Source: Minisyncoccia bacterium | Lineage (GTDB): Bacteria; Patescibacteriota; Minisyncoccia; Phycocordibacterales; UBA9973 | Length of the DNA: 64,000 nucleotides | Assembly (NCBI GenBank): GCA_039809245.1 | Contig: JBDHUP010000002.1 | Span: forward strand, 11,188-75,187 | Direction of reading: 5' to 3' | Shown: positions 23,341-40,227 of the stretch, piece after piece | Position numbering within the stretch: the stretch's first letter is position 1 | Layout: every line of letters starts with the position of its first letter | Translations under genes and position numbers: made by a program | Notes under the pieces: generated by a model | What the model was told of the DNA's origin: nothing | Database searches by the model: none | The model's input: the letters and a program-made list of their open reading frames with translations, nothing else

Positions 23341-23427
23341 GGAGGTGTGGCTGAGTGGTTGAAGGCACTTGTCTTGAAAACAAGAGACCGTTTACGCGGT
23401 CCGTGAGTTCGAATCTCACCGCCTCCG
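23341..23427 (+). tRNA. tRNA-Ser (anticodon TGA), long variable arm; integration target
   Basis: Manual cloverleaf; anticodon loop CTTGAAA; acceptor GGAGGTG/CGCCTCC. Confidence 0.85.
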
Positions 23428-23429
23428 CA
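23414..23429 (+). repeat. attL: 16-bp tctcaccgcctccgca (3' end of tRNA-Ser), exactly repeated at 41904-41919
   Basis: Exact match found by eye. Confidence 0.65.
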
Positions 23430-23500
23430 TTGACAACTTGGTAGATACATGACCTGATTACTTATGTAACTAGTGCGACCCACAAACCTATCAAGTTACA

Positions 23501-23530
23501 AAAAAGAGCGATTCATTTCGCTCTTTTTTG
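23501..23530 (-). terminator. Hairpin agagcgattcatttcgctct plus T-run; terminator of the 189-aa gene. A near-identical hairpin lies at 41925-41942
   Basis: Seen in sequence. Confidence 0.55.
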
Positions 23531-24100
23531 TTATTTGTTTTCAAACTTTCTAACGATACGTTCATGTATCTGTATTAACTGTTCCTCAGTAAATATTTTG
23601 TCATATTTCCAGATCTTCCCTCCGAGAGAAAAAGCCTTCAAATAAGCTTCGCAATAGGTTTTTGGGTTTATAACCAAAACGTCATCTCTTTTCTCCCATC
23701 CTAAATCTAATTGGTAATCGTATTCTATTCTGTGTCCCATAGATCCAAGCCATTGGTGAGCAAGAATATTTCGCCAGTTATGAATATCTTCTGCTATTAA
23801 AGAAAACTTGAGATCATCCGTATCTCCATCAACAAAAGTTTCAAGGAATTGTTTGTAATCCTTGAACATCGAATTTGGACTTTCATTCGCAAAGAATACT
23901 TCGCCAACAGTAAGTGCCGATGCATGAACACCTAGAAACATCAAAGATGTTTGGTAGTGCGAAGGTGTCACTCCAATTTCATTATTGAAATAGTTTGCGA
24001 TGGAATTAAGTAGAGTTTCAATTGCCTCTACTGGATGACTCTTGAGTCGCTCAAGACGATGTTCTTGTGACTCTGAATTGTGTGAACGATTTTGACTCAT
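23531..24100 (-). CDS. Hypothetical protein with an R-x4-H motif (RNILAH), possible HEPN-like
   Basis: 189 aa; motif seen in translation; first gene inside the island. Confidence 0.3.
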   Translation of the reverse strand: MSQNRSHNSESQEHRLERLKSHPVEAIETLLNSIANYFNNEIGVTPSHYQTSLMFLGVHASALTVGEVFFANESPNSMFKDYKQFLETFVDGDTDDLKFSLIAEDIHNWRNILAHQWLGSMGHRIEYDYQLDLGWEKRDDVLVINPKTYCEAYLKAFSLGGKIWKYDKIFTEEQLIQIHERIVRKFENK

Positions 24101-24162
24101 ACTTTAATTTTAGCATTTTTCAAATTTGACTCCACACACTGTTTTTTAGAGAGTTTGAGTGT

Positions 24163-25542
24163 ATGAATAATATAAATGAAAGGTCTGTGGGAAATGCGAC
24201 CTTACCAAATAAACCACTTCCCGTTATTAAGTACTGTCTCTATGCTCGTAAATCAATGGAAGACGAAGAACGGCAAGCTTTGTCTATTGATTCACAGCTA
24301 AAAGAAATGAAGCAAATAGCAGAAAGAGATAATCTCTATGTCGCTACTATGCGAACAGAAGCTCACTCTGCAAAGAATTCTGGTCAACGTCCTGTCTTTA
24401 ATCAAATGATTGAAGAAATACGTGAGGGTAAATACAACGCAATTCTTACATGGAATCCAGATCGTTTAAGCAGAAATGCTGGCGATCTCGGTGTATTGGT
24501 TGATCTTATGGACAGTCAATTATTAGTTGAGATACGGACCTATAATCAAAAGTTTAGTAACTCACCGAATGAAAAGTTTTTACTCATGATACTTGGTTCT
24601 CAAGCAAAACTTGAGAATGACAATAAGAGTATTAATGTGAAGCGTGGTCTTCGTACCAAGGTTGAGATGGGATTATGGCCCACTGTTGCACCAACAGGAT
24701 ATCTAAACAACATGACTCGAGGCAAAGAGGGTCATGTGATTATCGATCCAATTCGTGCACACGTTGTAAAACAAATATTCCAACTCGCAGCAGAAGGCTG
24801 GAGTCATAGAAGAATCAGAAGATGGCTTCGTGATGATTTGGATTTCAGATCCAAAAACAATAAGCACTTGGCTATGAGTACGATACAGAAAATATTATGT
24901 ACTCCTTTCTATTATGGCGAGTTTGAGTTTCCTAGAAAAAGTGGCAATTGGTATAAAGGTATTCATACACCACTCATTACAAAAGAATTATATGATCAGG
25001 TGCGAGAGCAGACTGACGCAAAGAAAAGATTGCAATATGTGTACAAGAAAAACTTTGCCTATACCAAGTTAATGAAGTGTGGTTTGTGTGGTGGAAATGT
25101 TACCGCAGAGGAAAAGTTCAAGGCTCTCAAAGACGGATCTATCGCTCGATATGTTTACTATGGATGCACTCGATCCAAAGATCCATCATGTAAGATTAAA
25201 TATATTCGTGAGGAATATCTCATCCAATCACTTCGTGAGTTGGTTGATAAATTATCACTCGACGATCTTGGTTTGCGTGGTCAATTTGAGAAAGAGGTTG
25301 AACGTATCCACCGATTCAACTGTGATGTTATGGGCAAACCACCCATGTATACCGATTCTGAAGAGCAAGATGTTGATATTAAAAAGTATATTAAATACAT
25401 TCTTCTCGATGGTTCTATAGAAGAGAAACGAAACATACTCCTCAATCTGAAGAGTAAATTAATTCTCAAGGACGGCTTCGTTTATCTCGATGTTGTTACA
25501 GATGAAGACGAGAGTCTTATGCCTACTCCTGTAGGAGATTAA
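24163..25542 (+). CDS. Large serine recombinase (resolvase catalytic domain, recombinase domain, zinc ribbon, coiled coil)
   Basis: YARKS catalytic-serine motif, CGLCGG...C zinc ribbon, 459 aa. Confidence 0.85.
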   Translation: MNNINERSVGNATLPNKPLPVIKYCLYARKSMEDEERQALSIDSQLKEMKQIAERDNLYVATMRTEAHSAKNSGQRPVFNQMIEEIREGKYNAILTWNPDRLSRNAGDLGVLVDLMDSQLLVEIRTYNQKFSNSPNEKFLLMILGSQAKLENDNKSINVKRGLRTKVEMGLWPTVAPTGYLNNMTRGKEGHVIIDPIRAHVVKQIFQLAAEGWSHRRIRRWLRDDLDFRSKNNKHLAMSTIQKILCTPFYYGEFEFPRKSGNWYKGIHTPLITKELYDQVREQTDAKKRLQYVYKKNFAYTKLMKCGLCGGNVTAEEKFKALKDGSIARYVYYGCTRSKDPSCKIKYIREEYLIQSLRELVDKLSLDDLGLRGQFEKEVERIHRFNCDVMGKPPMYTDSEEQDVDIKKYIKYILLDGSIEEKRNILLNLKSKLILKDGFVYLDVVTDEDESLMPTPVGD

Positions 25543-26899
25543 TCCTTTTATCATTCAGCACTAGTCTACTTCTTAAGTGTCCCAGTAGCTCACGCTTCTC
25601 AAGCGGTGTACCTTCACGCAACACATACTTAGCATATTCCCGAGTATTCACATCATCTTCATTGATGCTGTATTTTGGTGTACCTTTTGTTGCTAGTCTC
25701 TGTAATCTATTGAATCGCTTGATTTCTTCTTCGAGTTTCATTCGCATACCCAACTCATTGATGCTTACCTTATCGATGACCTTAAATAATTCTTCGATCA
25801 GTTCTTCTTCTCGTATGTATTTGTTTTTACAATTCCTATCCTTGGACTTACTGCATGAATAGTAGACGTACTTTGCTGTTGTTCCATCTTTAAGTTCCTT
25901 ATATTTCTCTTGTGCTGTTATTCCTGATTCACACATCCCGCAGGTGAATAATTTAGTGAATGCAAACTCTCTATTTTCTCGCACTATCTTATCTCTCTTT
26001 AATCTATCTTGAGCCTTATCAAACAATTCCTTAGTGATCAACGGTTCGTGCGATCCTTGATACCACTGTCCTGAGTTTCGTGGATATTCAAATGGTCCGT
26101 AGTAGATTGGCATATCGAATATACGATAAACCCCCGACAGAGTCAGGGGTTTATTCCCTCGAGTATAGAAGTTCAAATCGAACCGTAACCAGTTATAGAC
26201 TTTTCTACCACTCCATCCTTCGAATGCAACTTTCTCAAACATCTGTTTTATGACATGAGCACGATCTGGATCGGGTATGATCTGACACTTCTTATCCATT
26301 CTTTTCTGATTGATGTATCCCAGCGGTGCCATTCCGGGCCAGAGACCTGATTCAACTCGGGTACGCAGTCCACGCTTCACATTGATACCTCGGTTATCGT
26401 TTTCGAGTTTAGCCTGACTTCCCAAAATCATCAGGAGGAATTTCTCGTTTGGATTGTTTGAAAATGTCTGACCGAATGTTCGTATCTGTAAAAGTTTTCC
26501 TGCATCCATCAAGTCCACAATTTTTCCAAGGTCTCCTGCGTTTCTACTGATACGGTCAGGTGCCCACGTGAGAATCGCATTATATTTACCATCTTTTATT
26601 TCTTCGATTATTTCATTGAATACTGGTCGCTGACCCGTTTCCTTTGCCGAATGGCTTTCTCTTTTCATTGCCACAATCTCCAAGCCCTCACGATCTGCCA
26701 ACTGAAGCATTTCTTTGATCTGGGAGTCGATAGAGAGGACTTGGCGTTCTTCTGACTCGCTCGATTTTCTGGCGTACAGACAATACTGTGTTTTTACGCT
26801 TTTAATATCTATTTGGGGCATCTCAAAGCCCTGTGGTGCTGTTATTTTCATACAACCCATTAATGACGCAGACCATTTGAGGAGTCTAGAGCGTCCCAT
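25523..26899 (-). CDS. Large serine recombinase, paralog of the preceding gene; convergent with a 20-bp 3' overlap
   Basis: CLYARKS motif, CGMC...C zinc ribbon; ~55-60% identity to the neighbour by eye; start probably at an internal Met (MKITAPQ or MPQIDIK). Confidence 0.85.
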   Translation of the reverse strand: MGRSRLLKWSASLMGCMKITAPQGFEMPQIDIKSVKTQYCLYARKSSESEERQVLSIDSQIKEMLQLADREGLEIVAMKRESHSAKETGQRPVFNEIIEEIKDGKYNAILTWAPDRISRNAGDLGKIVDLMDAGKLLQIRTFGQTFSNNPNEKFLLMILGSQAKLENDNRGINVKRGLRTRVESGLWPGMAPLGYINQKRMDKKCQIIPDPDRAHVIKQMFEKVAFEGWSGRKVYNWLRFDLNFYTRGNKPLTLSGVYRIFDMPIYYGPFEYPRNSGQWYQGSHEPLITKELFDKAQDRLKRDKIVRENREFAFTKLFTCGMCESGITAQEKYKELKDGTTAKYVYYSCSKSKDRNCKNKYIREEELIEELFKVIDKVSINELGMRMKLEEEIKRFNRLQRLATKGTPKYSINEDDVNTREYAKYVLREGTPLEKRELLGHLRSRLVLNDKRINLLQE

Positions 26900-26959: not shown

Positions 26960-28702
26960 ATGAAAACCTATGAACACTTGACTTTATATCTTGAATCTGA
27001 TAGACTCAAATTACAACATATGAGAAAAGATATACAAGAAAAACTTAAGGGGATGCCAGAATTACTCTCTATCGGTCAGGTAGCAGAGATTTTCTCTATC
27101 CACCAAGACACCCTACGAAACTGGGAAAAAGACGGAACACTCGTCCCTCTTAGAGTCGGACCACGAAAAGATCGAAAGTACCGCCCACAAGACATTGAAG
27201 CAATTGTCGACAAAATGGGTAGCAAATTGACCCTTCCTCAACTTGAATCGTTCCTCTGGAAGAGTGCTGACATTCTTCGAGGAAAAATCGACAGTTCTGA
27301 TTACAAGAAATATATCTTTGGTCTTCTTTTCTACAAGCGAATGAGTGACGTTTGGGATGAAGAGTTCAACGCTGTAATGAAAGAGTACGATGATAAAGAT
27401 ATCGCTCGTGCAGACTACAATCACCGTTTCCAAGTTCCTAAAGATTGTCGATGGGAAAAAATTACAGAGCAAGCAGAAAACATCGGACAAAAACTCAATG
27501 ATATTTTTGATAAATTAACCAATGCAAACAGTCCGAAACTAGATAAAATTTTTGATGACCTAGACTTTGCAAACAAAGACCGTTTTCCAAACGAAACACT
27601 TCAGCGACTGATCAATCACTTTTCTCAATACAACTTTGGTAATACTTACATCAGCTCTGATCTCCTTGGTGACGCATATGAATACCTGATCAAACAGTTT
27701 GCAGCGGATGCAGGTAAGAAAGGTGGAGAGTTCTACACGCCTCGTGAAGTTGAAAAAGTTATCGTGGGCATTCTAAAGCCACACCAGAAAGACCACATCT
27801 ACGATCCAACAGTTGGATCGGGTGGTTTCCTTTTGGAAGCATATGACTATTTGAAACAAAAGTCTGGTGAAAAGATCGCAAAGACTTTGTATCTATACGG
27901 TCAAGAACAAAACCTTGCAACCTTTGCGATTGCGAAAATTAACATGTTCCTCCACGGACTTGATAGTGCCGATATTCGCCGAGGTGACACATTGGCAAAT
28001 CCACAATTCCTTAATCAACAAGGAGGTCTTCAAACATTCGACATTGTAGTAGCTAATCCTCCGTACTCAATCAAAGACTATGAATGGGAGGCATTCAAGA
28101 ATAAGTTTGGTCGTTTGGAGGGATACGATGCACCACCCGAGAAAAATGCTGATTATGCTTTTGTCCTCCATATAATCAAATCAATGAACACTAATGGTCG
28201 TGCAGGTATTGTGTTGCCACACGGTGTCTTAACTCGAGGTAATGCTGAGGCACGAATCCGTGAACAAATACTTAAAAATGATCTTGTTGAGGCAATTGTT
28301 GCTCTACCATCAAAACTATTCTATGGGACAGGTATTCCTGCCGTAGTGGTTATCCTTAACAAAAACAAAGCTGAGGACAAGAAAAACAAGGTTTTGATTA
28401 TCGATGCCGAAAAAGATTTTCAGGAAGGCAAAAATCAAAATACTCTAAGACCTGCCGATATAAATAAGATTGTAAAAGCATTTAATGGATACGAGGATAT
28501 CGATAAATACGCATGTGTTGTAACATTGAAAGATATAGAGGAGAAAGATTTTAACCTTAATATCCGAGAGTACATTGATTCATCTGAAGAAGAGGAGGTT
28601 ATTGATGTGAAAAAAGTAAGAAGTGAAATTGCTTCACTTAAAAAAGAATTATCAAAAGCAGATGCTTTAGTTGAAAAGTATTTAGATGAGCTTGGCTATT
28701 AA
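26960..28702 (+). CDS. hsdM: Type I R-M N6-adenine DNA methyltransferase HsdM carrying an ~85-aa N-terminal excisionase/MerR-type HTH extension
   Basis: HsdM N-domain (LTLPQLESFLWKSADILRG), motif I DPTVGSGGFL, motif IV NPPYS; N-terminal LSIGQVAEIFSIHQDTLRNWEKDG HTH. Confidence 0.9.
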   Translation: MKTYEHLTLYLESDRLKLQHMRKDIQEKLKGMPELLSIGQVAEIFSIHQDTLRNWEKDGTLVPLRVGPRKDRKYRPQDIEAIVDKMGSKLTLPQLESFLWKSADILRGKIDSSDYKKYIFGLLFYKRMSDVWDEEFNAVMKEYDDKDIARADYNHRFQVPKDCRWEKITEQAENIGQKLNDIFDKLTNANSPKLDKIFDDLDFANKDRFPNETLQRLINHFSQYNFGNTYISSDLLGDAYEYLIKQFAADAGKKGGEFYTPREVEKVIVGILKPHQKDHIYDPTVGSGGFLLEAYDYLKQKSGEKIAKTLYLYGQEQNLATFAIAKINMFLHGLDSADIRRGDTLANPQFLNQQGGLQTFDIVVANPPYSIKDYEWEAFKNKFGRLEGYDAPPEKNADYAFVLHIIKSMNTNGRAGIVLPHGVLTRGNAEARIREQILKNDLVEAIVALPSKLFYGTGIPAVVVILNKNKAEDKKNKVLIIDAEKDFQEGKNQNTLRPADINKIVKAFNGYEDIDKYACVVTLKDIEEKDFNLNIREYIDSSEEEEVIDVKKVRSEIASLKKELSKADALVEKYLDELGY

Positions 28703-28708
28703 TACAAT

Positions 28709-30292
28709 ATGACTATTACTGATTACAAAACAGAAAGAGAGAATGATGTAAGTAAAATTAAGTCTTCTGTCCACCCTAAAAAGGTTGTCGTTGCAGGGCC
28801 TGGGACAGGTAAGAGTTTTTTGTTTCAAGAACTTATCAAAGAGAAGAAAAAGTCTGGTAAGACTGATTTTGTTGCTATTACATTCATAGGTAAATTAGGT
28901 GATGCACTTGCTGATGACCTCTGTGGTTTAGCTGAAACTATGACTATGCATGGTTTTGCGAGAAGATTTGTTCTAGAAAAGTGTAAGGGCTGGATTTATT
29001 ACCCTAGAATGTATGACATCATTAAAGCTGATTTAAAAAGCGAAGGTATTGATGATTTTGAAATTGGAGACGACAATTACAAAAAGAAAACTCTTTTTTA
29101 TAAAGCTGTTGGTGATGAAGATGTTGTTCATTACGCAATCCAGATATGTGAAAAGGACAAATCAAAGATTCCTACTCACGATTTAATATTAATTGATGAG
29201 TTCCAGGACTTTAATGAAAAAGAATCGCAATTTGTTGATTTGCTTGCTGAGAAAAATGAGATTGTGATAGTTGGCGATGACGATCAGGCACTCTATGAAT
29301 TCAAAGGCTCATCTCCAGCTTATATTAGAAGCAAACACCACACAAGCAATACAGATTTTGAAAGTCATACGTTGAGATTTTGTTCGAGATGTACTGATGT
29401 TGTGATTAAATATTTTCATGCTCTCGTGGAGAAATTTAACCTTAAAGATTCTACAAAAAATCGGATTGAAAAGGATTATATATGTTACGTGCCTGACAAA
29501 GAAAAAGATTCTAAAGCGAACCCACAAATACATCTTATAAAAAATTGCCCTAGTGGAATGATTGCTTTTAAGATAAGAGCTGAGTTAGAAAAACTTGTTA
29601 CCGAGCAAAAAATTAAAGACATTCTCATTATTGGTGAAGGAAGATCTTGCAAAGCTATCCTTGAATCGATAGCAAAGCAACTGAAACACTACGGATTTAA
29701 AAATGTAGATTACGGTAAATCTAATGGCTATCTAGATACTAAGCAGAATATTGTTGATGCTTATAAGTTCTTAGCGAATGATCCTGAGTCAGTTTTGGGT
29801 TGGCGAATACTTGATAATCCAACAGATCAAACTGAAAAAGAAAGGCATCTAAAAAATTCTAAGACCTTAAAAGTAATTATTTCAGGTAAATCTGCTGAGA
29901 TTAAAAAACTCAAAGATACTGCTATTGTCGAACTAGAAAAGACTATAGAAAATAATCACGTTGATGATCCCATCCTCAAGAGATCTGTTTTTATTGATGA
30001 ATTACGAGACCGAAACATTGTTCTCTCAAGACCCCTTGGAAACTTAAATATTACAGTATGCAATATTCTGAATTCGAAAGGACTTGGTGCTGATGTTGTA
30101 TTTTTGGTCGGATTTGACGATGGTAAATTTCCTGCAAAAAACATACCGACTGACAGCGAAATTTATCAAATGCTTGTTGCTATTACAAGATCGAAGAAGC
30201 GAATGTATCTCGTTAATACAACTGGAAAGAAAACATCAGTCTTTCTCGATTGCTTGGATGCCAGTGACTTAAGCACAAAAGAAATTAAGTAA
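28709..30292 (+). CDS. Compact UvrD/Rep-like SF1 helicase embedded between hsdM and hsdS
   Basis: Walker A AGPGTGKS, motif II LILIDEFQDFN, motif III VGDDDQALYEF, C-terminal motifs SKGLGADVVFLVG and VAITRSKKRMYL; 6 bp after hsdM, 1 bp before hsdS. Confidence 0.75.
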   Translation: MTITDYKTERENDVSKIKSSVHPKKVVVAGPGTGKSFLFQELIKEKKKSGKTDFVAITFIGKLGDALADDLCGLAETMTMHGFARRFVLEKCKGWIYYPRMYDIIKADLKSEGIDDFEIGDDNYKKKTLFYKAVGDEDVVHYAIQICEKDKSKIPTHDLILIDEFQDFNEKESQFVDLLAEKNEIVIVGDDDQALYEFKGSSPAYIRSKHHTSNTDFESHTLRFCSRCTDVVIKYFHALVEKFNLKDSTKNRIEKDYICYVPDKEKDSKANPQIHLIKNCPSGMIAFKIRAELEKLVTEQKIKDILIIGEGRSCKAILESIAKQLKHYGFKNVDYGKSNGYLDTKQNIVDAYKFLANDPESVLGWRILDNPTDQTEKERHLKNSKTLKVIISGKSAEIKKLKDTAIVELEKTIENNHVDDPILKRSVFIDELRDRNIVLSRPLGNLNITVCNILNSKGLGADVVFLVGFDDGKFPAKNIPTDSEIYQMLVAITRSKKRMYLVNTTGKKTSVFLDCLDASDLSTKEIK

Positions 30293-30293
30293 T

Positions 30294-31418
30294 ATGAATA
30301 ATCCTCTTAAACAAAAGAATATTCCGAAAGGATGGGAATACGGTTCTCTTGGAGATTTTATTGTAGATATTAAAGATGGAGGAACTCCTTCTAGGCGTAA
30401 AGGTGAATATTTTGGTGGTGGTATACCATGGGTTGTCATCAAAGATATAAAATCTAGAATTTACTCTACAAACGAAACCCTTTCTAAATTAGGCATTGAA
30501 AATTCAAGTGCTAAGGTTTTTCCTGCAGGCACAGTTATTTTATCATTTGGTGCAACGATTGGAGAAGTTGGTATCGCAGAAGTTGATTTAGCTACAAAGC
30601 AAGGTATTGCCGGAGTTTTGCCAGATGTTTCAAAAATTACAACTGAATATTTATATTTTTTATTACAATCTCAAAAAAAGTTACTCAATCAAATGGCTAC
30701 AGGAAGTACTATTAAGGAAGTACGTCCAAATATTATCAAGAAAATTAATATACTTGTCCCCCCAATAAAAGAGCAGAAGAAAATTGCTGATATTTTGTTA
30801 TCTGTTGATGAAGAGATTCAAAAGGTTGAAGAGATAATTTCCGCGACTGAAAAATTAAAAAAAGGGCTGATGTCAGGATTATTTACTAAAGGAATTGGTA
30901 ATAATAAATTTCAAAAAACAAGAATCGGAGATATATTAACTTTAGAATACGGCAAACCATTAAAAGCATCAGATAGAGTCTCTGGAGATATACCAGTTTT
31001 TGGTTCAAACGGTATAGTTGGATATCATGATACAAGCTTAGTAAAAGGACCTGGTGTTATTGTAGGAAGAAAAGGAGGGGCTGGAGAAGTGATGTTTTCA
31101 GAAGTAGATTTTTATCCCATAGATACAGCTTATTTTGTAAAAACGGATTTTAATAAAAAATTTATTTATTATTTATTAGTAAATACAAACTTAAAAAAGC
31201 GTTCCGGAGGTAGTGCTGTTCCTGGATTAAATAGAAATGACGCATATTCTAAAATAGTGATTCTTCCAAAAAAAGAAGGTCAAGAGATAATTGTAAACAT
31301 TTTATCTTCTGTAGATAGAAAAATTATTACTTGTCAGAAATTAAAAACAAAATTATTAGAACTTAAAAAGGGATTAGTGTCGGATCTCCTGAGTGGAAGT
31401 AAAAGAGTAAAAATATGA
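30294..31418 (+). CDS. hsdS: Type I R-M specificity subunit HsdS (two target-recognition domains)
   Basis: Duplicated TRDs with conserved repeats (PPIKEQKKIADIL / PKKEGQEIIVNIL). Confidence 0.85.
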   Translation: MNNPLKQKNIPKGWEYGSLGDFIVDIKDGGTPSRRKGEYFGGGIPWVVIKDIKSRIYSTNETLSKLGIENSSAKVFPAGTVILSFGATIGEVGIAEVDLATKQGIAGVLPDVSKITTEYLYFLLQSQKKLLNQMATGSTIKEVRPNIIKKINILVPPIKEQKKIADILLSVDEEIQKVEEIISATEKLKKGLMSGLFTKGIGNNKFQKTRIGDILTLEYGKPLKASDRVSGDIPVFGSNGIVGYHDTSLVKGPGVIVGRKGGAGEVMFSEVDFYPIDTAYFVKTDFNKKFIYYLLVNTNLKKRSGGSAVPGLNRNDAYSKIVILPKKEGQEIIVNILSSVDRKIITCQKLKTKLLELKKGLVSDLLSGSKRVKI

Positions 31419-32473
31419 AATTACTATTTTTAGATTCAAATATATTCCTTAATTTCTATGATTTTCATGATGAAGATCTAACTCAACTTGCGAAGTTGGT
31501 GGATGTAATAAAGGCTAAAGAAATAAAGCTCTTTTTGACTACTCAAGTTTGTGAGGAAATTAAGAAAAACAGAGAGGCTCGATTAAAGGTTGCGTATGAG
31601 AAAATCGTAGATTCAAAAGTAACTTTAGCTATTCCTCCTTTTTGTAAACACTACGATGAGTATTCTGATATTAAGCGTGCTCAAAATATTCTTGATCAAT
31701 TAAAATCTGAACTAAGTAAGAAACTTTGGGAAGATATACAAAATCACACACTACAAGCTGATAAAATTATTAACGACCTTATCAATGAGAGTAGTATAAT
31801 TGATTCAGATAAATATTTGCCTCAGGCAATACAAAGGCATCAATTAGGTAGACCGCCTGGAAAGAAAGATAGGAGTTATGGCGACGAGATTAACTGGGAG
31901 GCAATTTTAGCTGAAGTGTCTGGTGAGGGTGAATTTATACTTCTTAGTAAAGATGGCGACTATGCTCATGCAATAGATGATCAGTCGCTAAAAGACTATC
32001 TTGTTGATGAATGGAAGAAGAGTCATCCAGATAATGAAATATTTTTCTACAAAAGCTTAACTAAATTTTTCACTGAGCATGATATCAAGATCGAGTTGCG
32101 TATAGAACAGGAAAAAGATGAACTTGTTCGAGACTTGATTAACAGTCACAACTTCTTAAATACACACATTATAGTAAGTAGTCTCTCTAAATACAGTAGT
32201 TTTACAGATGATCAGGTAAGAGGTATAGCAAATGCTTTGAGTGAAAATAGTCAGGTTAGATGGATTATTGATGATGCCGATGTAAAGGAATTTTATAGAG
32301 ACAATCTTCTTCCTAGGTTAGACTTATTTGATTCCGAGACACAGCAAAGTATTAGAGGCTTAATTCAAGGTGAAGAAGTTGCGGATTTGTCTGCCGAATT
32401 GAATAATCTTGAAGAAAAACTTAAAGAAGAAAAAGATGAAGAAAGTGATAATGAAGAAGATATTCCATTTTAA
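31415..32473 (+). CDS. PIN-like domain protein (predicted nuclease) with acidic C-terminal tail, embedded between hsdS and hsdR
   Basis: Four spaced acidic positions in a PIN-like pattern (LFLDSNIF, TTQVCEEI, GDEINWEAIL, LLSKDGDY); ATGA overlap with hsdS, 9 bp before hsdR. Confidence 0.45.
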   Translation: MKLLFLDSNIFLNFYDFHDEDLTQLAKLVDVIKAKEIKLFLTTQVCEEIKKNREARLKVAYEKIVDSKVTLAIPPFCKHYDEYSDIKRAQNILDQLKSELSKKLWEDIQNHTLQADKIINDLINESSIIDSDKYLPQAIQRHQLGRPPGKKDRSYGDEINWEAILAEVSGEGEFILLSKDGDYAHAIDDQSLKDYLVDEWKKSHPDNEIFFYKSLTKFFTEHDIKIELRIEQEKDELVRDLINSHNFLNTHIIVSSLSKYSSFTDDQVRGIANALSENSQVRWIIDDADVKEFYRDNLLPRLDLFDSETQQSIRGLIQGEEVADLSAELNNLEEKLKEEKDEESDNEEDIPF

Positions 32474-32482
32474 CTAAACAAT

Positions 32483-35395
32483 ATGAAATTCAACGAATTA
32501 TATACAATAGAAAAACACGTTATAAAATTCATCCAAGAAAAACTTGGCTATGAGTTTATTCCTGCTGAAGAGTTTTCAAAACTTCGTGCTTTCGAAAACG
32601 AGGTTATTATCACTTCACACCTTATTGAATCTGTTCAAAAGATAAATGAGGTTGATGAAACTTTGGCTCAAAGTGTCGTTCGTGAGATCAAGAAACTTGA
32701 TACCAATGAAGCATTTTTACTTACGATGCGAAATGGTGTAAATCTTAAAGATCCTGCAACTGGCAAGAATCGTGATTTTCAGATTGTTGATTTTGATAAT
32801 GCCGACAACAACCGATTTGTTGTTACAAGTCAGTTCTACTTCGAGGGCACCACAGAAAACATTCGCCCTGACGTGATGATTTTCTTGAACGGTCTACCTA
32901 TCTCTGATATTGAAGCAAAAAGCCCCACCGCTTCTAGCTCGGTAAGCTTTGAGAATGCTATTGATCAGATCAAGCGATACGAAAAAGTTGCATCAAAACT
33001 ATTTCTCCCTAACTGCTTTAATATTGCAACAGACGGACTAAAAACAGTGTATGGAGCAACTTATTCTCCAAAGCAATACTTTTTGACTTGGCGAGAAGAT
33101 CCACATAGTGAATCAAAGATGTTTGAAGATGAGCTTGATTCAACACTCTACTTCCTATTTGAAAAAGAAAGACTCCTTGATGTCTTGAAGAACTTTATTG
33201 TATTTGAAAAGAAGAAAGACGGATCTATTAAAAAGATAGCTCGATATCAGCAACTGTACGCTTCTAATAAAATTGTAGAGAGAGTTAAGGATGGTGACCA
33301 TAAAAAAGGTCTTATTTGGCATACTCAAGGATCTGGAAAGACTCTGACCATGTTTTTTACTGCTTGGAAGCTTCGATATGCACCTGAGCTTAAAAACCCA
33401 AAGGTATTTATTCTCATCGACCGTATTGATCTTGATGATCAAGTATTTGAAGAGTTTGAAGCTTGGGGTGGTCAGAACCTCATTCGAGTTGAGTCTCGTA
33501 AGGATCTCGAAAAGAAAATCAAAGGTGCAGACCGAGGTATCTTTATTTCAACTATCCAGAAATTTACTGAACTAGAAGAAATTGAAAGTATTGATGGAAA
33601 TGTCATCGTTCTTTCTGATGAAGCCCACCGAGATAACGAGGGAGTATCTGCTATCAAGATGCGTAATGCATTTAAAGATGCGTTCTTCTTTGGGTTCACT
33701 GGAACTCCTATTGATAAACTAACTCTTAATACACACCGCAACTTTGGTGAAGATGGAGAGCGATATCTTGATTATTATTCTATTCAACAAGCTATTGATG
33801 ATGGTGCGACGTTGCCTGTTACCTATGAAGCTCGACTTTCTAAATTCTTTATTGACGAGGAAACCGTAGACAAAAAGTTCAATGAACTAACTACTGATCT
33901 GAGCAAAGAACAGAAAGAACTCCTTACAAAGAGGTACGGAAAGAAGGAAGCTCTGGTAAAGCTAGAGAAACGAATGGAAGCAGTCATTCAGGATATTGTT
34001 GAACATTACAAGCTGTATGTCCTTCCAAACGGGTTTAAAGCACAGATTGTGTGTTATGACCGAGAAGCAACAGCAAAGTATAAAGACTTGCTTGATAAGC
34101 TTGTGCCATCAGAATGGTCAGAAGTTGTATATTCTCCCGCTGATCCAAATAGTGATAGCGACGACCTAAAAAAATACAACACGAACAAACAAAAGCGAGA
34201 GAAGATTATTGAACAATTCAAAGACCCAACTCATCCTCTAAAGTTTCTACTTGTCTGTGACATGCTTTTGACTGGTTTTGATGCTCCAGTTGAACAGGTA
34301 ATGTACCTTGATAAGCCACTCCGAGACCATAATCTTCTACAAGCTATTGCTCGTACAAACCGTGTCTACCCAAACAAAGGGTGTGGAAAGATTATTGACT
34401 ACTATGGTGTGACTAAGAACCTCTATGATGCTCTCAATTTTGATGAGAGTGTGGTTGATAGTGCGATGATCAATATTGATAAGTTGAAAGAAGACTTCAA
34501 AAAGGTGCTTGATGAAGTCATGAGTCTTTTCGAGGGGGTTAATATTGAAGATCCTTCAATTGAAAACCTTCGTCGATGTCTCAAGATATTTATCGACAAT
34601 CAAAGCAAACAACAATTCTTCAAAGACAAATATGGTCGTCTAAAGATGTTGTTTGAGATACTTTCTCCCGATCCATTCCTTATTGAGTATCTACGCAAAT
34701 TTGAGTGGATTACCAGTTTCTATCTTGCTTTTAGTAAAGAATTTCAACCAGAAGGAGTTGATGCGTTTTCTCTTGCTGAATACGGAGAGAAAATCAAAAA
34801 CCTTATCCAAGACAAGATTGATTATGAGGGAATCACTAAGAATTTCCGTGAGCTATCGGTACACGATCTCGCTACACTTAACAAACTAGACAAACTTCCT
34901 GATGAAGATAAGGCTCTTAATCTTGAAAAGATGCTTAAACGTGAGATCTCTATCAACATAGACACACACCCAGCATTTAAAGGATTTGGTGAGCGACTTT
35001 CCTCAATTAGACAAGAGTTTGAGAAACATCAGATTGATCTTGCTGAACGTATCAAGCGTTACTACGAACTTCTGAACGATATCAAGACCAAAACTGAAGA
35101 AGCAAAGGAACTTGGTTATTCTCTCCATGAATACGGACTCTTTGTAATTTCTGAGGAATTCATTAGCGAATCAGATCAAGCGGTTATAAAAGAATTCATC
35201 AAGGAAATGTCATCTCGATTGGAGGATGTTCTTGATGAGGGATGGCAAAACTCATCAAAGCGTGAGGAGTTTATAAAAGAAGCCAAGAGAACATTGCAGG
35301 AGTTAATTCTTAAAGACTACAAGAACAAGATTCAGATTTCTGACTTCCAAAAATATCTCAATCGTTTGATTGATGTAGTTATTAAAAAATTCTAA
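32483..35395 (+). CDS. hsdR: Type I R-M restriction subunit HsdR (SF2 translocase/endonuclease)
   Basis: 970 aa; Walker A HTQGSGKTLT, DEAH-box VLSDEAHR, helicase motif VI QAIARTNR. Confidence 0.9.
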   Translation: MKFNELYTIEKHVIKFIQEKLGYEFIPAEEFSKLRAFENEVIITSHLIESVQKINEVDETLAQSVVREIKKLDTNEAFLLTMRNGVNLKDPATGKNRDFQIVDFDNADNNRFVVTSQFYFEGTTENIRPDVMIFLNGLPISDIEAKSPTASSSVSFENAIDQIKRYEKVASKLFLPNCFNIATDGLKTVYGATYSPKQYFLTWREDPHSESKMFEDELDSTLYFLFEKERLLDVLKNFIVFEKKKDGSIKKIARYQQLYASNKIVERVKDGDHKKGLIWHTQGSGKTLTMFFTAWKLRYAPELKNPKVFILIDRIDLDDQVFEEFEAWGGQNLIRVESRKDLEKKIKGADRGIFISTIQKFTELEEIESIDGNVIVLSDEAHRDNEGVSAIKMRNAFKDAFFFGFTGTPIDKLTLNTHRNFGEDGERYLDYYSIQQAIDDGATLPVTYEARLSKFFIDEETVDKKFNELTTDLSKEQKELLTKRYGKKEALVKLEKRMEAVIQDIVEHYKLYVLPNGFKAQIVCYDREATAKYKDLLDKLVPSEWSEVVYSPADPNSDSDDLKKYNTNKQKREKIIEQFKDPTHPLKFLLVCDMLLTGFDAPVEQVMYLDKPLRDHNLLQAIARTNRVYPNKGCGKIIDYYGVTKNLYDALNFDESVVDSAMINIDKLKEDFKKVLDEVMSLFEGVNIEDPSIENLRRCLKIFIDNQSKQQFFKDKYGRLKMLFEILSPDPFLIEYLRKFEWITSFYLAFSKEFQPEGVDAFSLAEYGEKIKNLIQDKIDYEGITKNFRELSVHDLATLNKLDKLPDEDKALNLEKMLKREISINIDTHPAFKGFGERLSSIRQEFEKHQIDLAERIKRYYELLNDIKTKTEEAKELGYSLHEYGLFVISEEFISESDQAVIKEFIKEMSSRLEDVLDEGWQNSSKREEFIKEAKRTLQELILKDYKNKIQISDFQKYLNRLIDVVIKKF

Positions 35396-35397
35396 CT

Positions 35398-35967
35398 ATG
35401 AAAAAGCATATAGAACTTCACAAAAGAAAAGTTCCATATACGCTCAAAGTAAGTAAGCGAGCAAAAAGACTCCGCCTCGCAATTTATTGTGATGGTGCTT
35501 TTGTTGTGACCACTCCTCGAAATGTTGAGGTTTCAGTTATTGAGAAATTCATCATACAAAGATCTCAGTGGGTTATCGATAAGTTAGATTACTTCAGCCA
35601 ATTCTCTGATGTATTCAAAAAGAAGAATACTCAAGCAGAATATTTGAAGTACAAAGAAGAGGCTCTATCTTTAGCCGAGAAAAAGGTTAAGAAATTCAAT
35701 AAGATTTACAAATTCTCTTACAACAAGATTAATATCAAAAATCAAAAGACTCGCTGGGGTAGCTGTTCTAAAAAAGGTAACCTTAATTTCAACTATAAAA
35801 TTGCGTTGTTGCCTGAACGTCTTGCTGAGTACATAGTCGTACACGAACTCTGCCACCTTGGACAATTTAATCACTCTCAGAAGTTTTGGAATTTGGTAGC
35901 CAAGGCTATACCTGACTATCTAGAGATCAAGGAGGAGTTAAAAAGAAGTGGTTTAAGATTTCATTAA
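35398..35967 (+). CDS. DUF45/COG1451 (YgjP-like) zinc metallohydrolase, a known companion of Type I R-M operons
   Basis: HELCHL...H metal-binding motif near the C-terminus; 2 bp after hsdR. Confidence 0.65.
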   Translation: MKKHIELHKRKVPYTLKVSKRAKRLRLAIYCDGAFVVTTPRNVEVSVIEKFIIQRSQWVIDKLDYFSQFSDVFKKKNTQAEYLKYKEEALSLAEKKVKKFNKIYKFSYNKINIKNQKTRWGSCSKKGNLNFNYKIALLPERLAEYIVVHELCHLGQFNHSQKFWNLVAKAIPDYLEIKEELKRSGLRFH

Positions 35968-35968: not shown

Positions 35969-36214
35969 ATGGATGACTGGAGCTTCAACATACCCAAAAA
36001 GATTTTGAGAGTATTATTGATTGGTGCAGTCATACTTGCTGTTCTCTACGGGGTTTTTACTGGTGACTCAAAGAAAGGTGCTGATTTTTATATGAAGGAG
36101 GTTAAATTTATTATGACTCCAATAATAAATAAAATGCAAAATCGTATGGAAAAGATATTCGATAGAGCACTTAATAAAACTCAAGAGAACCAGAGTGAGA
36201 ATGTCGAAAACTAA
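35969..36214 (+). CDS. Small single-TM protein
   Basis: 81 aa ORF, 1 bp after the preceding gene. Confidence 0.3.
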   Translation: MDDWSFNIPKKILRVLLIGAVILAVLYGVFTGDSKKGADFYMKEVKFIMTPIINKMQNRMEKIFDRALNKTQENQSENVEN

Positions 36215-37701
36215 CCGAACAATATTCCACCTGAAACTGGATTATTCTCAATAATTTTAAGAACCACGATGGAAAAAGCGTCAGCTAAGTCATCGTGTTT
36301 TTCTTTTCCAAATCCAAGAAGTTGCTCGATTAATTCTTCACAACCGCTTTCAGGAAATAAAATGCGTCCGTCCTTTAACAATGGAGTCGTGAGTCGTAAT
36401 CGTGCACCTTTGTCGTTTCTTCCTGTTGGCACACCCTCAATGTCATACTTTTGACTCTCAAAGAATTGGATCAATGCTTTTTGATATCCAACATCTTCCA
36501 CAAAAAGTTTTACCCGATTGTGTTTCATTTTCTCGGTTGCCACCAACGCTTTGATAAATTCTGCGTGTACAGGAAATGAACTCCTTTTGTTATAAGGATG
36601 CTTTTGAATATAGATTTTCATATTTTTCCCTGTGCCGTATACATATGCAACGACAATAGCGGTGCAGTCAGCTGAATCTTTTTCACTTACCGCCAAATCG
36701 ATACCTATACAGATACTTCTAAATCCATCGGCAGGCATTTTGTCATAGAATGTGATCCATTCAGGCAAGACAATCTGCTCGTCAGTCGCAATGATCTGAA
36801 GCATATACTCACGAAACCACGCAACATCATCCATAGTTTTTTCTCGCTCAGCTTCAACATCTTCTGGAGCAGGATACTTGCCGGGCCATAAAGGATTGCC
36901 CTTGGGATCAACAATAGGATATTCACGGTATACAGCCTTAATGCGACTCATTTCACCATTTTCGATTTTCTTTTGTAGTCGCTTCAGCACAGAGTCCTCA
37001 TGAAGTAAGTTACCCACAGCAATGATTCTCGTTTTCTTGGTTCCTGCAGGGATTACTTCACTTACAAGCCAGTTGAATGTTTTATCACGACCAACACGAG
37101 TTTTAACCGATTGGGTATCTTCAATGTCGTCTATGATAATAAGGTCGGGGCGATGTTGATCGTGTCTTACTCCACGGATGCTTTGCTCTACAGAGCTGAT
37201 CATAATCTTCACATTGAGTCTCTTGATAATGAGTGCCGTAGCATTACCGAGATTGTTCTTTTCTTCTTCAAAAGGTCCAAGGTCTTTTCGCAGAAGGTCA
37301 TTATTTAAAAGCTGACTTTTTATATTCAAAAGATACTGCCGTGCTTTTTGCTCAGTTTGACCACAAATAACAATAAGCTTTCTTTGCTGTATACCGAGGA
37401 TAGACCATAGGACATACGCTGTTGAAATGATGGTTGATTTTGCTAAACCACGGAATGCAACAAACACTGCAAGTTTAATGCGATCATCTTCAAGAATACG
37501 AAACATCTCCTCGTGAAAGGGTGCTGTCTCATACTCCATGTATTGGTGAAAATATATTGGGAAAAAGAATTCAAAACTATTTTGTACAGTATGTTTTCGT
37601 ACTGTTTGATCAATAAGAATTTTCTCAAAAATATCTTCACTATTCCTTTGTGTCTTTAAACTTGGCATGTTTGCGTAATGATGAAAGTTTGAGTGCGGCA
37701 C
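36211..37701 (-). CDS. Phage terminase large subunit (ATPase plus RNase-H-like nuclease)
   Basis: Walker A-like RGLAKST, Walker B DLIIIDD, C-terminal nuclease acidic residues (IGIDLAVSEKDSAD). Confidence 0.75.
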   Translation of the reverse strand: MPHSNFHHYANMPSLKTQRNSEDIFEKILIDQTVRKHTVQNSFEFFFPIYFHQYMEYETAPFHEEMFRILEDDRIKLAVFVAFRGLAKSTIISTAYVLWSILGIQQRKLIVICGQTEQKARQYLLNIKSQLLNNDLLRKDLGPFEEEKNNLGNATALIIKRLNVKIMISSVEQSIRGVRHDQHRPDLIIIDDIEDTQSVKTRVGRDKTFNWLVSEVIPAGTKKTRIIAVGNLLHEDSVLKRLQKKIENGEMSRIKAVYREYPIVDPKGNPLWPGKYPAPEDVEAEREKTMDDVAWFREYMLQIIATDEQIVLPEWITFYDKMPADGFRSICIGIDLAVSEKDSADCTAIVVAYVYGTGKNMKIYIQKHPYNKRSSFPVHAEFIKALVATEKMKHNRVKLFVEDVGYQKALIQFFESQKYDIEGVPTGRNDKGARLRLTTPLLKDGRILFPESGCEELIEQLLGFGKEKHDDLADAFSIVVLKIIENNPVSGGILFG

Positions 37702-38071
37702 GAATGAGCTTCTTTTCTTCTTTCGTCAGAGGCTTTTCTTTTGATTCAATACTTCCTGAAAGCTCAAGTTTGTTGCTGTACCGTGGATTGTGAGTTGAGA
37801 GATATAACCGAATAGCCTCTATCTTTCTCTCACTAATCAGAGCAAAGAGTTGGTTCTCAGCAACATCTGACATAAATTTTCTACCCTCGTTAAGAGACTC
37901 ATCAATTTGCCGTTCAAACTTCTTACTATTCGCAATCCATCGATAAACCGTAGCTCGTGATACACCAACTTTTTGACAGGAAGTTTCAAGAGTGGGCGTA
38001 CGCTTGAGCTGGTCGAGCAAAGCTTCTTTGATACGCGATTGCCTTTGTTGTATTGAATCTTTTCTACTCAT
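37640..38071 (-). CDS. Terminase small subunit-like HTH protein
   Basis: N-terminal HTH (VGVSRATVYRW) typical of phage TerS; immediately upstream of terL. Confidence 0.45.
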   Translation of the reverse strand: MSRKDSIQQRQSRIKEALLDQLKRTPTLETSCQKVGVSRATVYRWIANSKKFERQIDESLNEGRKFMSDVAENQLFALISERKIEAIRLYLSTHNPRYSNKLELSGSIESKEKPLTKEEKKLIRAALKLSSLRKHAKFKDTKE

Positions 38072-38826
38072 AGTTTTTCTGCTTTGACTCCAGACAGCTT
38101 TTCAAAACGATCAATGACTGTTTGACAGTATTCAATATCCATCTCGACTCCGATGCATATACGCTTTGTCTGCTCGCACGCAAGCAATGTTGTACCTGAA
38201 CCTAGAAACCCATCAAAAACCACATCTCCGATCCGTGTACTATTTAGTACAAGTCTACGAATAAGATCGATTGGCTTTGTCGATGGATGCATTTTGCTTT
38301 TATTTGGTTTTGGACAAACCAAGACACTCTTGTCTTTTGATTTCAAAAACTCATGTGTGCCATGCCACCCGTATGCGATTAGTTCATGTTGAGGTGCATA
38401 GTCCATACGACCGATGACTGCATGAGTTTTCACCCAAATGAGAAGTTGTCCAAATTTAAGACCTGCTTCGTGCATTCCTTCACGCAAAGCAAATACCATC
38501 TTGTCTGAATTAAAGATATAAAAGCTATTTTTACGATCAAGGTGGGGTCTAATAGCCTCAATCCAATCACGGGTGAAAGTTTTATATTCCAGATCGCTTT
38601 GTAAGTGATCGTTGAGTATTGGTTTATTCTTGGCGAGTGTCTGAAATCCTTCCTTACTTTCAGCTACGGCTACTCCATAGGGTGGGTCAGAGATTACTGC
38701 TTTGATTTTGTGTGTACTAACAAGCCTTGCGATCATATCCTTGTTTCGTGAATCTGCACACAAAAGCAAATGCTGTCCTAACCGAAATGCATCGCCGTAT
38801 TTAATTGAGCTTTGTGACTTTTTCAT
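38068..38826 (-). CDS. DNA methyltransferase (beta-class N6A/N4C, DPPY)
   Basis: Motif IV SDPPYG precedes motif I FLGSGTT. Confidence 0.8.
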   Translation of the reverse strand: MKKSQSSIKYGDAFRLGQHLLLCADSRNKDMIARLVSTHKIKAVISDPPYGVAVAESKEGFQTLAKNKPILNDHLQSDLEYKTFTRDWIEAIRPHLDRKNSFYIFNSDKMVFALREGMHEAGLKFGQLLIWVKTHAVIGRMDYAPQHELIAYGWHGTHEFLKSKDKSVLVCPKPNKSKMHPSTKPIDLIRRLVLNSTRIGDVVFDGFLGSGTTLLACEQTKRICIGVEMDIEYCQTVIDRFEKLSGVKAEKL

Positions 38827-40078
38827 TGGATATTTTCTTAAATCTATTAATAATTACCTGACAGAAAACTGGTTCAATTTCTGCAAGGAATGCTCGACGT
38901 TTAAGTGCTTCACAGGCAACCAGAATACTCCCTGATCCAGCCGTCAGATCAAGAATCGTATCACCAGGTTTACTACACCGTCTGATGCTTTTTTCGTATA
39001 AAGTCGGTGGCTTCATTGTCGGATGCTGATATTCAGAACTAGGCAGTCTTTTCGCAAGCCATATCTGGAACATGTCCGAAATATCATCAAGTAATCTATT
39101 ACCAGAGGATATTTCCTTATTCTGAAATTCAGTCAGATTCTTAACTTTGTCAGATAGATAGGGCTTACCTCGAACTCCATACATACAAAGCTCTACGGCA
39201 CGATTAAAAGCGATTTTAGGGGTTGGATTATGTTGAGACTTTGCCCACAAACAGAGTCGTTTGAAATCAATACCTACTGCTTTGAAAACATCCTGCATCA
39301 TCCCTAGGTATTTCTCATCCAGCCATGCAAAAGCATGGCAATCGTTCTTCGATACCCCCAGTGCGTTTTTTAAGATACTTGCAAGAAACTCCTTGTACTC
39401 AGCATCTGATTTTTTATCATTGATAGTTCCTCCGTAGTTCTGCTTGCCACCTAATCCCGCCGAGTAATCTACGCCTATGTTATATGGAAAATCTATATTG
39501 ATGAGATCTATCCGCTCAGAACCCACTAGCTCTGTAACGGTTTCTTTTTTAGTACTATCTCCACAAATTAAAACGTGACTCCCGAGTGAAAATTTATCAC
39601 CCAATTTAATGTCAGTTTTTTGAGCTTCCTTGAGTTCCTTTTCAAGATCAATATCATCGTCATCTACTTCGAGGTTGTCATCGAAAATATTAGAAAGATC
39701 GAATGAATCAAAACCCGCAGTAAGGAGTTCGTCGAGATCAAAATCTCGTGCAAGCTTTTCAAAATCCCAAGACGCACCGCTTCGATTTGAGGTGAGTAGG
39801 TAATCTTTAAATTCTTTTTCTGTAAGAGTTCTGTTTGGAACTCTTACCTCTATTTCTTCATCTTCTCGACCAAGAAGAGACAAGACCATCACTCGTTGGT
39901 TTCCAGCAACCAGAGTGCCGTCTGTGTTGATACACGGCAATTCTGCCAGATCAAATTTCTTGAGACTTCGCTTGAGTCCCTCAAGTTGTGTAGGCGAAAG
40001 TTTGCGAGGATTCTTTTCGTATCGAATCAAATCCTTCACTTTACGTTTCTCCGTATGCCAAACTAATTTTTTGCTCAT
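38801..40078 (-). CDS. ParB-like nuclease domain fused to a DNA methyltransferase
   Basis: N-terminal ParB/Srx-like segment (EKNPRKLSPTQLEGLKRSLKKF...AGNQR), C-terminal MTase motifs (DFPYN, LTAGSGS). Confidence 0.75.
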   Translation of the reverse strand: MSKKLVWHTEKRKVKDLIRYEKNPRKLSPTQLEGLKRSLKKFDLAELPCINTDGTLVAGNQRVMVLSLLGREDEEIEVRVPNRTLTEKEFKDYLLTSNRSGASWDFEKLARDFDLDELLTAGFDSFDLSNIFDDNLEVDDDDIDLEKELKEAQKTDIKLGDKFSLGSHVLICGDSTKKETVTELVGSERIDLINIDFPYNIGVDYSAGLGGKQNYGGTINDKKSDAEYKEFLASILKNALGVSKNDCHAFAWLDEKYLGMMQDVFKAVGIDFKRLCLWAKSQHNPTPKIAFNRAVELCMYGVRGKPYLSDKVKNLTEFQNKEISSGNRLLDDISDMFQIWLAKRLPSSEYQHPTMKPPTLYEKSIRRCSKPGDTILDLTAGSGSILVACEALKRRAFLAEIEPVFCQVIINRFKKISNEKVTKLN

Positions 40079-40206: not shown

Positions 40207-40227
40207 AAGAAAACTTTTCCACTCCAC

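Follow-up and report, generated by a model that had tools for sequence, protein, structure and literature searches.

A gene on the forward strand (31415-32473) of a 64,000-nucleotide stretch of Minisyncoccia bacterium contig JBDHUP010000002.1, hereafter the window, encodes a two-domain nuclease whose helical C-terminal domain contains a segment of about 50 residues that is, on statistically supported profile comparison, homologous to the site with which the immune nuclease DARNA reads single-stranded DNA (ssDNA), and whose free C-terminus has the form of the tip of bacterial ssDNA-binding proteins (SSBs). Both the link to DARNA and the SSB-type tip are new, as neither is present in the literature that we searched. 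With middling confidence, we read the protein as a self-contained, single-protein anti-phage nuclease that would be gated by ssDNA and would travel as cargo in type I restriction-modification (R-M) operons. The original prediction, made from the sequence alone, had described an open reading frame (ORF) for a PIN-like nuclease that overlaps hsdS by ATGA and precedes hsdR. The ORF, its coordinates and its neighbours are as described there: the ATG of the PIN gene lies at 31415 and the hsdS stop TGA at 31416-31418, and hsdR starts at 32483, 9 nucleotides past the stop of the PIN gene. That observation and its interpretation as a PIN domain are correct, and at that level ordinary: the protein comes from a Pfam family already on record but uncharacterised, and the gene sits in a familiar cargo slot. 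What lifts the finding above the ordinary is the statistically supported link between the C-terminal domain and the ssDNA site of DARNA, together with the occurrence of the SSB-type tip on both PIN and HEPN families. The gene and the parts of its product are as follows.

31415-32473, forward strand: the whole PIN gene, 352 amino acids plus stop, in three parts (PIN_12 nuclease domain, helical C-terminal domain, acidic tail ending EDIPF).
31415-32080, forward strand: nuclease domain of the PIN (VapC-group) type, residues 1-222, interrupted by a long helical insert (about residues 81-144).
32087-32374, forward strand: helical C-terminal domain, residues 225-320, a HEAT/ARM-like helical repeat that matches the PDC-S34 C-terminal module.
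32111-32266, forward strand: segment aligned by hhalign to the ssDNA base-reading site of DARNA/PD-T7-3, residues 233-284.
32375-32470, forward strand: acidic linker (residues 321-352), in the model a charged helix up to about residue 344 and disordered thereafter (DSSP), with a predicted local distance difference test (pLDDT) score of about 55.
32456-32470, forward strand: E-D-I-P-F-COOH at residues 348-352, a terminal motif that equals the C-terminal tip of bacterial SSB.

DARNA, which is PD-T7-3, joins an N-terminal HEPN tRNase to a helical C-terminal domain, in which F368, D372, N402, Q403, Y405, W406 and N408 serve to read 'CT' in ssDNA; ssDNA activates its tRNA cleavage, phage SSBs promote this activation while the host SSB prevents it, and the F368A and W406A mutants are dead (bioRxiv 10.64898/2026.02.22.705581). 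We recovered its sequence by back-translating the published residue positions into a DNA pattern of fixed spacing, with which viral contigs were scanned. In a 456-codon ORF, F6, N33, R117-x4-H122 and the contact residues all agreed with the published numbering, and a protein 91% identical to it (P0193) matched the PD-T7-3 model at E = 2e-164. This DARNA/PD-T7-3 gene lies on viral contig L038 (IMGVR_UViG_2585427757_000010), on the minus strand around 4962-5084. In hhalign, the profile of our C-terminal domain matched a 43-member DARNA-family profile with a probability of 89.6% (E = 1.9e-6, score 46.4) and the single DARNA sequence at E = 1.9e-4, and the full-length 149-member profile of the PIN family, used as query, matched DARNA with a probability of 76.6% (E = 2.2e-5). 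Only the C-terminal segment was aligned, the N-terminal halves staying unaligned, and the register was identical in all three alignments (S244 = S365, F247 = F368, T250 = A371, H251 = D372, N278 = N401, Q280 = Q403, W283 = W406). Null scores were 14.3 ± 2.8 for column-shuffled targets (maximum 30.4, n = 150), 18.0 ± 3.6 for 7-column block shuffles (maximum 33.6, n = 150), and 13.0 and 16.7 for reversed profiles.

The aligned segment contains two motifs, S244-x-x-F247-x-x-T250-H251 and N278-x-Q280-V-x-W283. Conservation was counted in 149 diverse relatives that are 28-45% identical to the window protein, and S244 was present in 140 of them, F247 in 132 (with tyrosine in a further 15), T250 in 137, H251 in 135 (arginine in a further 10), N278 in 147, Q280 in 145 and W283 in 84. 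The positions aligned to DARNA are the most conserved residues of the C-terminal domain. In the alignment, the F, Q and W contacts of the 'CT'-reading site of DARNA stand in register with F247, Q280 and W283 of the homologous segment, whereas D372 of DARNA is replaced by H251, and any base preference of the window protein therefore probably differs from that of DARNA. The overall build is also alike, as both DARNA/PD-T7-3 (see also Vassallo et al., 2022, PMC9519451) and the window protein are single proteins with an N-terminal nuclease and a helical C-terminal domain, and both are found on mobile elements. In contrast to DARNA, the effector of the window protein would be a metal-dependent PIN domain rather than HEPN, without an Rx4H motif, and its C-terminal domain has about 100 amino acids, compared with about 300 in DARNA.

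The helical nature of the C-terminal half, claimed in the original prediction, was borne out by the structure model, which is all-helical from about residue 229 (DSSP). This half (residues ~225-320) belongs to no family of Pfam or NCBIfam. A match was obtained to the PADLOC candidate model PDC-S34, over its last ~80-110 positions (E = 3.3e-15); the window protein aligns with positions 292-370 of this 384-position model and does not match it as a whole. The same C-terminal module (profile positions ~270-384) is common to 148 of the 149 relatives, the N-terminal ~270 positions being unmatched, and because only the C-terminal positions match, PDC-S34 is a different family built on the same module. 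Our literature search found no published work on PDC-S34. No full-length match to the PADLOC model PD-T7-3 was found, and the window protein did not match that model at E ≤ 0.1, while six of the 149 relatives weakly matched its positions ~293-398, with about 1.5 chance matches expected over all 5,027 models. Other N-terminal fusions of the domain were absent from a word-indexed search with its alignment, whose only results were four fragments of this very family, truncated at the N-terminus. Sequence searches of the PDB with the protein and the family profiles gave no significant relative; the only relevant weak match was 9wwz_A, 'Dandelion' (E = 0.91). This 304-residue entry has stretches identical to the DARNA C-terminal domain, and from its sequence 'Dandelion' seems to be the same protein as DARNA under a second name. 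No literature on 'Dandelion' was found in our search.

The original prediction had also noted a poly-E/D tail at the C-terminus. An acidic tail is indeed present, but it is more than poly-E/D, as it closes with a terminal motif of the form [D/E]-[I/V/L]-P-F-COOH; the window protein ends in ...KDEESDNEEDIPF. The C-terminal tip of SSB, with the consensus DDDIPF (D-D-D-I/L-P-F), is described in the SSB literature as a conserved peptide to which many genome-maintenance proteins dock (PMC5872125, PMC3159472, PMC7913777). The window protein shares with SSB an acidic flexible tail that bears [D/E]-[I/L/V]-P-F-COOH at a free C-terminus, but it has no oligonucleotide/oligosaccharide-binding fold, its linker is acidic and helical where that of SSB is rich in Gly, Pro and Gln, and the motif stands on a nuclease. 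Across homologues, the linker varies in sequence and length (21-68 residues after Y294), while a terminus of the form [D/E/N]-[I/L/V/M/F]-P-F recurs. The strict tip, [DEN]-hydrophobic-P-F, is present in 37 of the 149 relatives (about 25%), and 59 of them end in F. The looser pattern [DE][ILVM][PASTQ]F is found in 54 of 183 full-length family proteins, DIPF (15), EIPF (13), DLPF (7) and EVPF (7) being the commonest forms. As a control, we scanned 905 ORFs of at least 100 amino acids across the fetched loci, among which the tip motif occurred 17 times, namely in 15 family members and two SSBs. The two SSBs are near-identical proteins of 138 amino acids, one of them confirmed by Pfam (PF00436, E = 3.3e-33). 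Within the window, only this gene has the motif.

The strongest argument is that the tip is not confined to PIN proteins. Eight of 111 full-length DARNA-family proteins carry it (P0276, P0278, P0279, P0282, P0287, P0292, P0295 and P0303), with termini such as DEDEIPF, EEDVPF, DDDEIPF, DEDEVPF, EVDIPF and ADDDIPF. The four of these that were checked match the PD-T7-3 model over positions 1-429 at E~1e-150, with the tip lying beyond the end of the model. These homologues have the HEPN effector; DARNA of E. coli itself is without the tip. An SSB-like tip is not mentioned in the DARNA preprint (bioRxiv 10.64898/2026.02.22.705581), and in the searchable literature we found no SSB-tip motifs on defence proteins. 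Within the PIN family, the tip is uncorrelated with embedding in R-M operons, as three proteins are embedded without it (P0024, P0026, P0040) and two stand-alone proteins carry it (P0013, P0038). Given that HEPN-bearing DARNA homologues also carry the tip, it goes with the shared putative sensor module rather than with the PIN domain or the hsd genes. The docking site of the tip cannot be read from the structure model, since the pLDDT of the tail is ~55.

The PIN assignment in the original prediction came from motif reading, with a profile search proposed as its check, and it was upheld. Pfam PIN_12 (PF16289) matched above its gathering score (69.6 bits against a cut-off of 32, E = 5.8e-19), with residues 4-183 covering the whole model (profile positions 1-172 of 172), and the N-terminal half was modelled with the alternating strands and helices of this fold. 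The acidic positions proposed there required correction. The conserved acids are present, but the numbering was one off (D7, not D8; E48, not E47; D157, not D156), and the conserved residues of the 'D181 region' are D180 and D182. The residue listed as E157 (in truth E158) is not conserved, being alanine in 117 of the 149 relatives, and an invariant acid, D116, was missing from the list. Conservation among homologues, on which the assignment had been staked, was found for D7 (146 of 146) and for E48, D116, D157 and D180 (149 of 149 each), all invariant, and D182 was present in 145 of 149. R53, R141, P147-P148 and W161 are also invariant or nearly so, and two loops of the domain are conserved, R141...G145-x-P-P-G-K150 and G156-D157-x-x-x-W161-E162. 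Judged from these profiles and from the model, the N-terminal domain is a true PIN domain with conserved catalytic residues.

PIN_12 and PIN_8 were the only domain families that the protein matched in Pfam, NCBIfam and PADLOC, and neither PHROGs nor NCBIfam gave a useful match. A Foldseek search of the PDB returned nothing significant (best E = 0.09), with PIN proteins as the top matches; the structural neighbours are mostly RNases, including VapC toxins, Nmd4, HARP RNase P and the PIN domain of Rrp44. By analogy, the domain is most likely an RNase with tRNA or rRNA as predicted target, and RNA is the probable substrate given the VapC-like neighbours, the precedent of DARNA and the PrrC-like genomic niche. 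DUF4935/PIN_12 has been placed in the VapC structural group of the PIN-like superfamily as a family of 'function unknown' whose genes are mostly monocistronic and whose C-terminal region had no homologue on record (Matelska et al., 2017, PMC5499597). The window protein belongs to this family (PF16289, formerly DUF4935) and does not differ from it at family level, sharing the length of ~350 amino acids, the N-terminal PIN domain followed by a C-terminal region, the conserved acids, the long helical insert after the second strand and the usually monocistronic arrangement. A word-indexed search gave 41 homologues of 36-96% identity, and an exhaustive search with a profile built from these gave 3,907 clusters (50% identity) at E ≤ 1e-3, 825 of them at E ≤ 1e-30, so the gene is real. 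Nearly all of the best 150 relatives have 304-362 amino acids and align over both halves.

The position of the gene relative to hsd genes, likened to that of PrrC-type nucleases in the original prediction, was confirmed, with hsdS (30294-31418) on one side and hsdR (32483-35395) on the other. The carrier operon was annotated by running Pfam on all six products, with PADLOC in addition for the helicase.

26960-35967, forward strand: carrier operon of six genes, including the PIN gene.
26960-28702, forward strand: hsdM with an N-terminal MerR-type helix-turn-helix.
28709-30292, forward strand: UvrD/GajB-like helicase.
30294-31418, forward strand: hsdS.
32483-35395, forward strand: hsdR.
35398-35967, forward strand: YgjP-like metallopeptidase.

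The successive intergenic gaps are 6, 1, -4, 9 and 2 nucleotides, and a simple scan of the operon found no internal promoter- or terminator-like signals above the expectation from shuffled sequences. The context of homologues was sampled at 25 loci from species-representative genomes, together with loci from exact-protein look-ups. In at least 13 independent loci, the gene lies inside a type I R-M operon (the window, L001/L047, L002, L003, L004, L006, L009, L010, L030-32, L041, L042/43, L044, L045), with host labels that include Cloacimonadota, Gammaproteobacteria, Patescibacteria, Gracilibacteria and others. The slot differs among these operons, the order being hsdS-PIN-hsdR in most and hsdM-PIN-hsdS-hsdR in L042, with other genes between the PIN gene and hsdR in L041 and L044. 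The co-embedded genes change from locus to locus as well (Abi_alpha and AbiJ_NTD4 in L041, SduA_C in L030, HEPN_AbiU2 in L044, the helicase in the window only). Outside type I operons, a 66%-identical homologue (L026) lies in an island with an EcoRI-type methylase, GmrSD-HNH, RmuC, NYN, PIN_3 and UvrD-PDDEXK, homologues of 57% and 37% identity are lone genes amid housekeeping or unrelated genes, and the E. coli protein WP_001100381.1, which is 30% identical and has the same two-domain build, is encoded far from any hsd gene. Given the stand-alone homologues, the varying slot and the changing co-embedded genes, the gene behaves as a module of its own, with a preference for R-M loci and defence islands and no conserved partner.

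Some of these loci merit description in their own right. The gene for WP_001100381.1 is found near ref, a site-specific integrase gene and c1 on E. coli plasmids of ~95-100 kb that look P1-like, and it occurred in 30 of 5,426 complete E. coli genomes, plasmid-borne every time. On E. coli plasmid NZ_CP013030.1 (L033, 6995-7945), the homologue has 316 amino acids with PIN_12 and the C-terminal domain, and its SSB-type tip is absent. P1-like phage-plasmids with such a homologue were seen in E. coli (including O157:H7 and O111:H8 strains), Salmonella and Klebsiella. The island of L026 is dense in nucleases (8001-16903; GmrSD_N-HNH, RmuC, NYN, PIN_3 and UvrD-PDDEXK_1), several of them without described defence roles, and a YgjP-like gene is also present near the homologue there. 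In the window, the YgjP-like gene follows hsdR by 2 nucleotides and is kept at the same position in three related operons (L002, L003, L041). The window HsdM has its MerR-type helix-turn-helix at residues ~35-85, followed by HsdM_N and N6_Mtase, an unusual fusion of regulator and methylase that recurs in the related operon of L041 (1706-3415).

The helicase of the window operon (527 amino acids; best PADLOC GajB model E = 9.4e-27; Pfam UvrD-helicase, AAA_19 and UvrD_C) sits between hsdM and hsdS with gaps of 6 and 1 nucleotides, and no GajA-type nuclease is nearby. We considered it as a partner of the PIN protein and rejected it, as it adjoins no other homologue that was examined, the contig of the closest relative being too short to judge; it is a second, unrelated cargo gene of the operon. 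The operon is carried on an integrated element that starts after a tRNA-Ser (23341-23428) and has two large serine recombinases (24163-25542, forward strand; 25523-26899, reverse strand), which are convergent with 3' ends overlapping by 20 nucleotides. The tRNA-Ser/recombinase region (23341-26899) is probably the boundary of the element that bears the R-M/PIN operon. Just downstream of the operon, 36211-41594 on the opposite strand holds a Terminase_6C terminase-like gene, a helix-turn-helix protein, two N6/N4 DNA methyltransferases and then an HNH_5 endonuclease, and this content adjoining the defence operon is phage-like or satellite-like. The integrated element runs on into these terminase-like and DNA-methylase genes.

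In the mechanism that we propose, the PIN effector would be silent in uninfected cells. Phage replication would expose ssDNA, which in the case of DARNA is presented by phage SSB and hidden by host SSB, and the C-terminal domain, as sensor, would read it through F247, H251, Q280 and W283. This reading would switch on the PIN active site, and the active nuclease would arrest translation or growth and thereby abort the infection. The tip could place the protein among SSB-tail-recognising proteins and SSB-ssDNA assemblies, or it could fold back onto the sensor as a DNA mimic and raise the threshold for activation. We infer activation by ssDNA, an RNA substrate and the role of the tail, as well as a defence function, in favour of which stand the genomic context, the candidate status of the shared module in PADLOC and the precedent of Cosus (Brc24). 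This integron-cassette phage defence is a single protein, reported to carry a PIN_12 domain, that gives complete T7 resistance, lost in mutants of its PIN residues (bioRxiv 10.1101/2024.07.02.601719). Cosus resembles the window protein as a PIN_12 protein that acts alone in defence, a comparison that rests on the PIN_12 assignment of its authors; in contrast, its key residues T12, D14 and D96 are not simply mappable onto D7/E48/D116, and Cosus is perhaps a PIN_12 relative of more compact build that lacks the C-terminal domain described here.

Dependence on the R-M system in the manner of PrrC is the main rival to this ssDNA-gated mechanism. The prr (EcoprrI) locus has prrC between hsdS and hsdR, and PrrC combines an ABC-ATPase-like N-domain with its own nuclease domain. 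By the same logic, the PIN domain would be held latent by HsdMS/HsdR and freed once an anti-restriction protein of the phage has put the type I enzyme out of action, so that the trigger would be the state of the R-M system rather than ssDNA. The shared slot, the 4-nucleotide overlap with hsdS, the 9 nucleotides to hsdR without internal promoter or terminator signal, and the at least 13 independent embedded loci are consistent with such a guard, and the two proteins are alike in being a presumably latent nuclease carried as R-M cargo, with a probable RNA target and an abortive-infection logic. We nevertheless consider it unlikely, given that the homologues at 57%, 37% and 30% identity are alone and far from hsd genes, that the one at 66% lies in a non-type-I island, that the gene has no fixed place in R-M operons (between hsdM and hsdS in L042; apart from hsdR in L041 and L044), and that a PrrC-like NTPase domain is absent. 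Homology to PrrC was itself rejected, as Pfam, NCBIfam and PADLOC gave no NTPase or PrrC match; the window protein is unrelated to PrrC and, unlike it, belongs to a family that also occurs outside R-M loci. The same slots hold many unrelated cargo genes, as would be expected of a hotspot rather than of a partnership. Next comes a DNA-directed role on SSB-coated ssDNA, in which the tip would recruit the protein to ssDNA-SSB, the C-terminal domain would bind ssDNA as substrate and the PIN domain would degrade DNA intermediates of the phage, perhaps at a stage downstream of the R-M cut or of the UvrD-like helicase. This we regard as rather improbable, since RNases make up most of the structural neighbours, the family has been assigned to the VapC group (PMC5499597), the helicase has not been kept next to homologues, and DARNA, the sole characterised protein with this sensor segment, uses ssDNA as activator and cuts tRNA.

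The resemblance to DARNA and the SSB-like tip could also be coincidental, with the C-terminal half serving the PIN nuclease only as an appendage for structure or oligomerisation. In favour of this are the shortness of the aligned segment, a helical-repeat fold of a common kind and the absence of the tip from most relatives; on the other hand, the hhalign score stands about 8 or more standard deviations above the shuffle nulls, depending on the null, the aligned positions combine the highest conservation in the domain with the contact residues of DARNA, and the tip occurs in two families that share only this segment and otherwise, among the 905 ORFs, only in SSBs, so that coincidence seems very improbable. 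The least probable reading, to which we give hardly any weight, is a VapC-like toxin that would serve as an addiction or stabilisation module of the mobile element or R-M island without sensing phage. The PIN fold is indeed nearest to VapC toxins, the element integrated at tRNA-Ser has two serine recombinases, and other toxin-antitoxin genes are found near some homologues (RelB/YafQ in L041, Phd/ParE in L045). A VapBC-type toxin-antitoxin pair was rejected, however, for lack of an antitoxin gene: the flanks are hsdS, with its 4-nucleotide overlap, and hsdR, leaving no adjoining small antitoxin gene, and lone homologues have no partner ORF, in line with a family that is usually monocistronic (Matelska et al., PMC5499597). 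VapC toxins, moreover, have about 130-150 amino acids (typically about 135), whereas the window protein, with 352, is about 2.5 times larger, has no VapB gene and carries an extra conserved domain, the putative sensor, and a tail.

Beyond the ssDNA-gated nuclease itself, we tentatively raise a broader and more doubtful possibility, that mimicry of the SSB tail is a recurrent, hitherto overlooked device of ssDNA-sensing immune nucleases. Under this hypothesis, the PIN_12 and HEPN DARNA families would each have acquired the tip, which would plug the sensor into the SSB interactome, the window protein would be the PIN-effector counterpart of DARNA, and the C-terminal module would be a portable ssDNA sensor used also by PDC-S34. 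The tip might then bait phage replication or recombination proteins that need host SSB tails, fasten the sensor to SSB-ssDNA filaments, or fold back as a DNA mimic and so set the threshold between self and non-self.

For most newly catalogued defence systems, the main question still to be answered is how abortive-infection nucleases tell an infected cell from a healthy one. One answer has recently come from DARNA, which reads ssDNA that phage SSB exposes and host SSB hides. The presence of the tip on two families of immune nucleases points to a direct physical link between such sensors and the SSB hub, through a docking peptide that is very well characterised. With the E. coli homologue carried by P1-like phage-plasmids, a system for experiments is already at hand. 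If the proposed reading is true, DUF4935/PIN_12, with its 3,907 clusters, would carry the same reading head on another effector, so that ssDNA sensing would be modular and widespread, and the whole PIN_12 family, probably together with PDC-S34, would gain a testable function.

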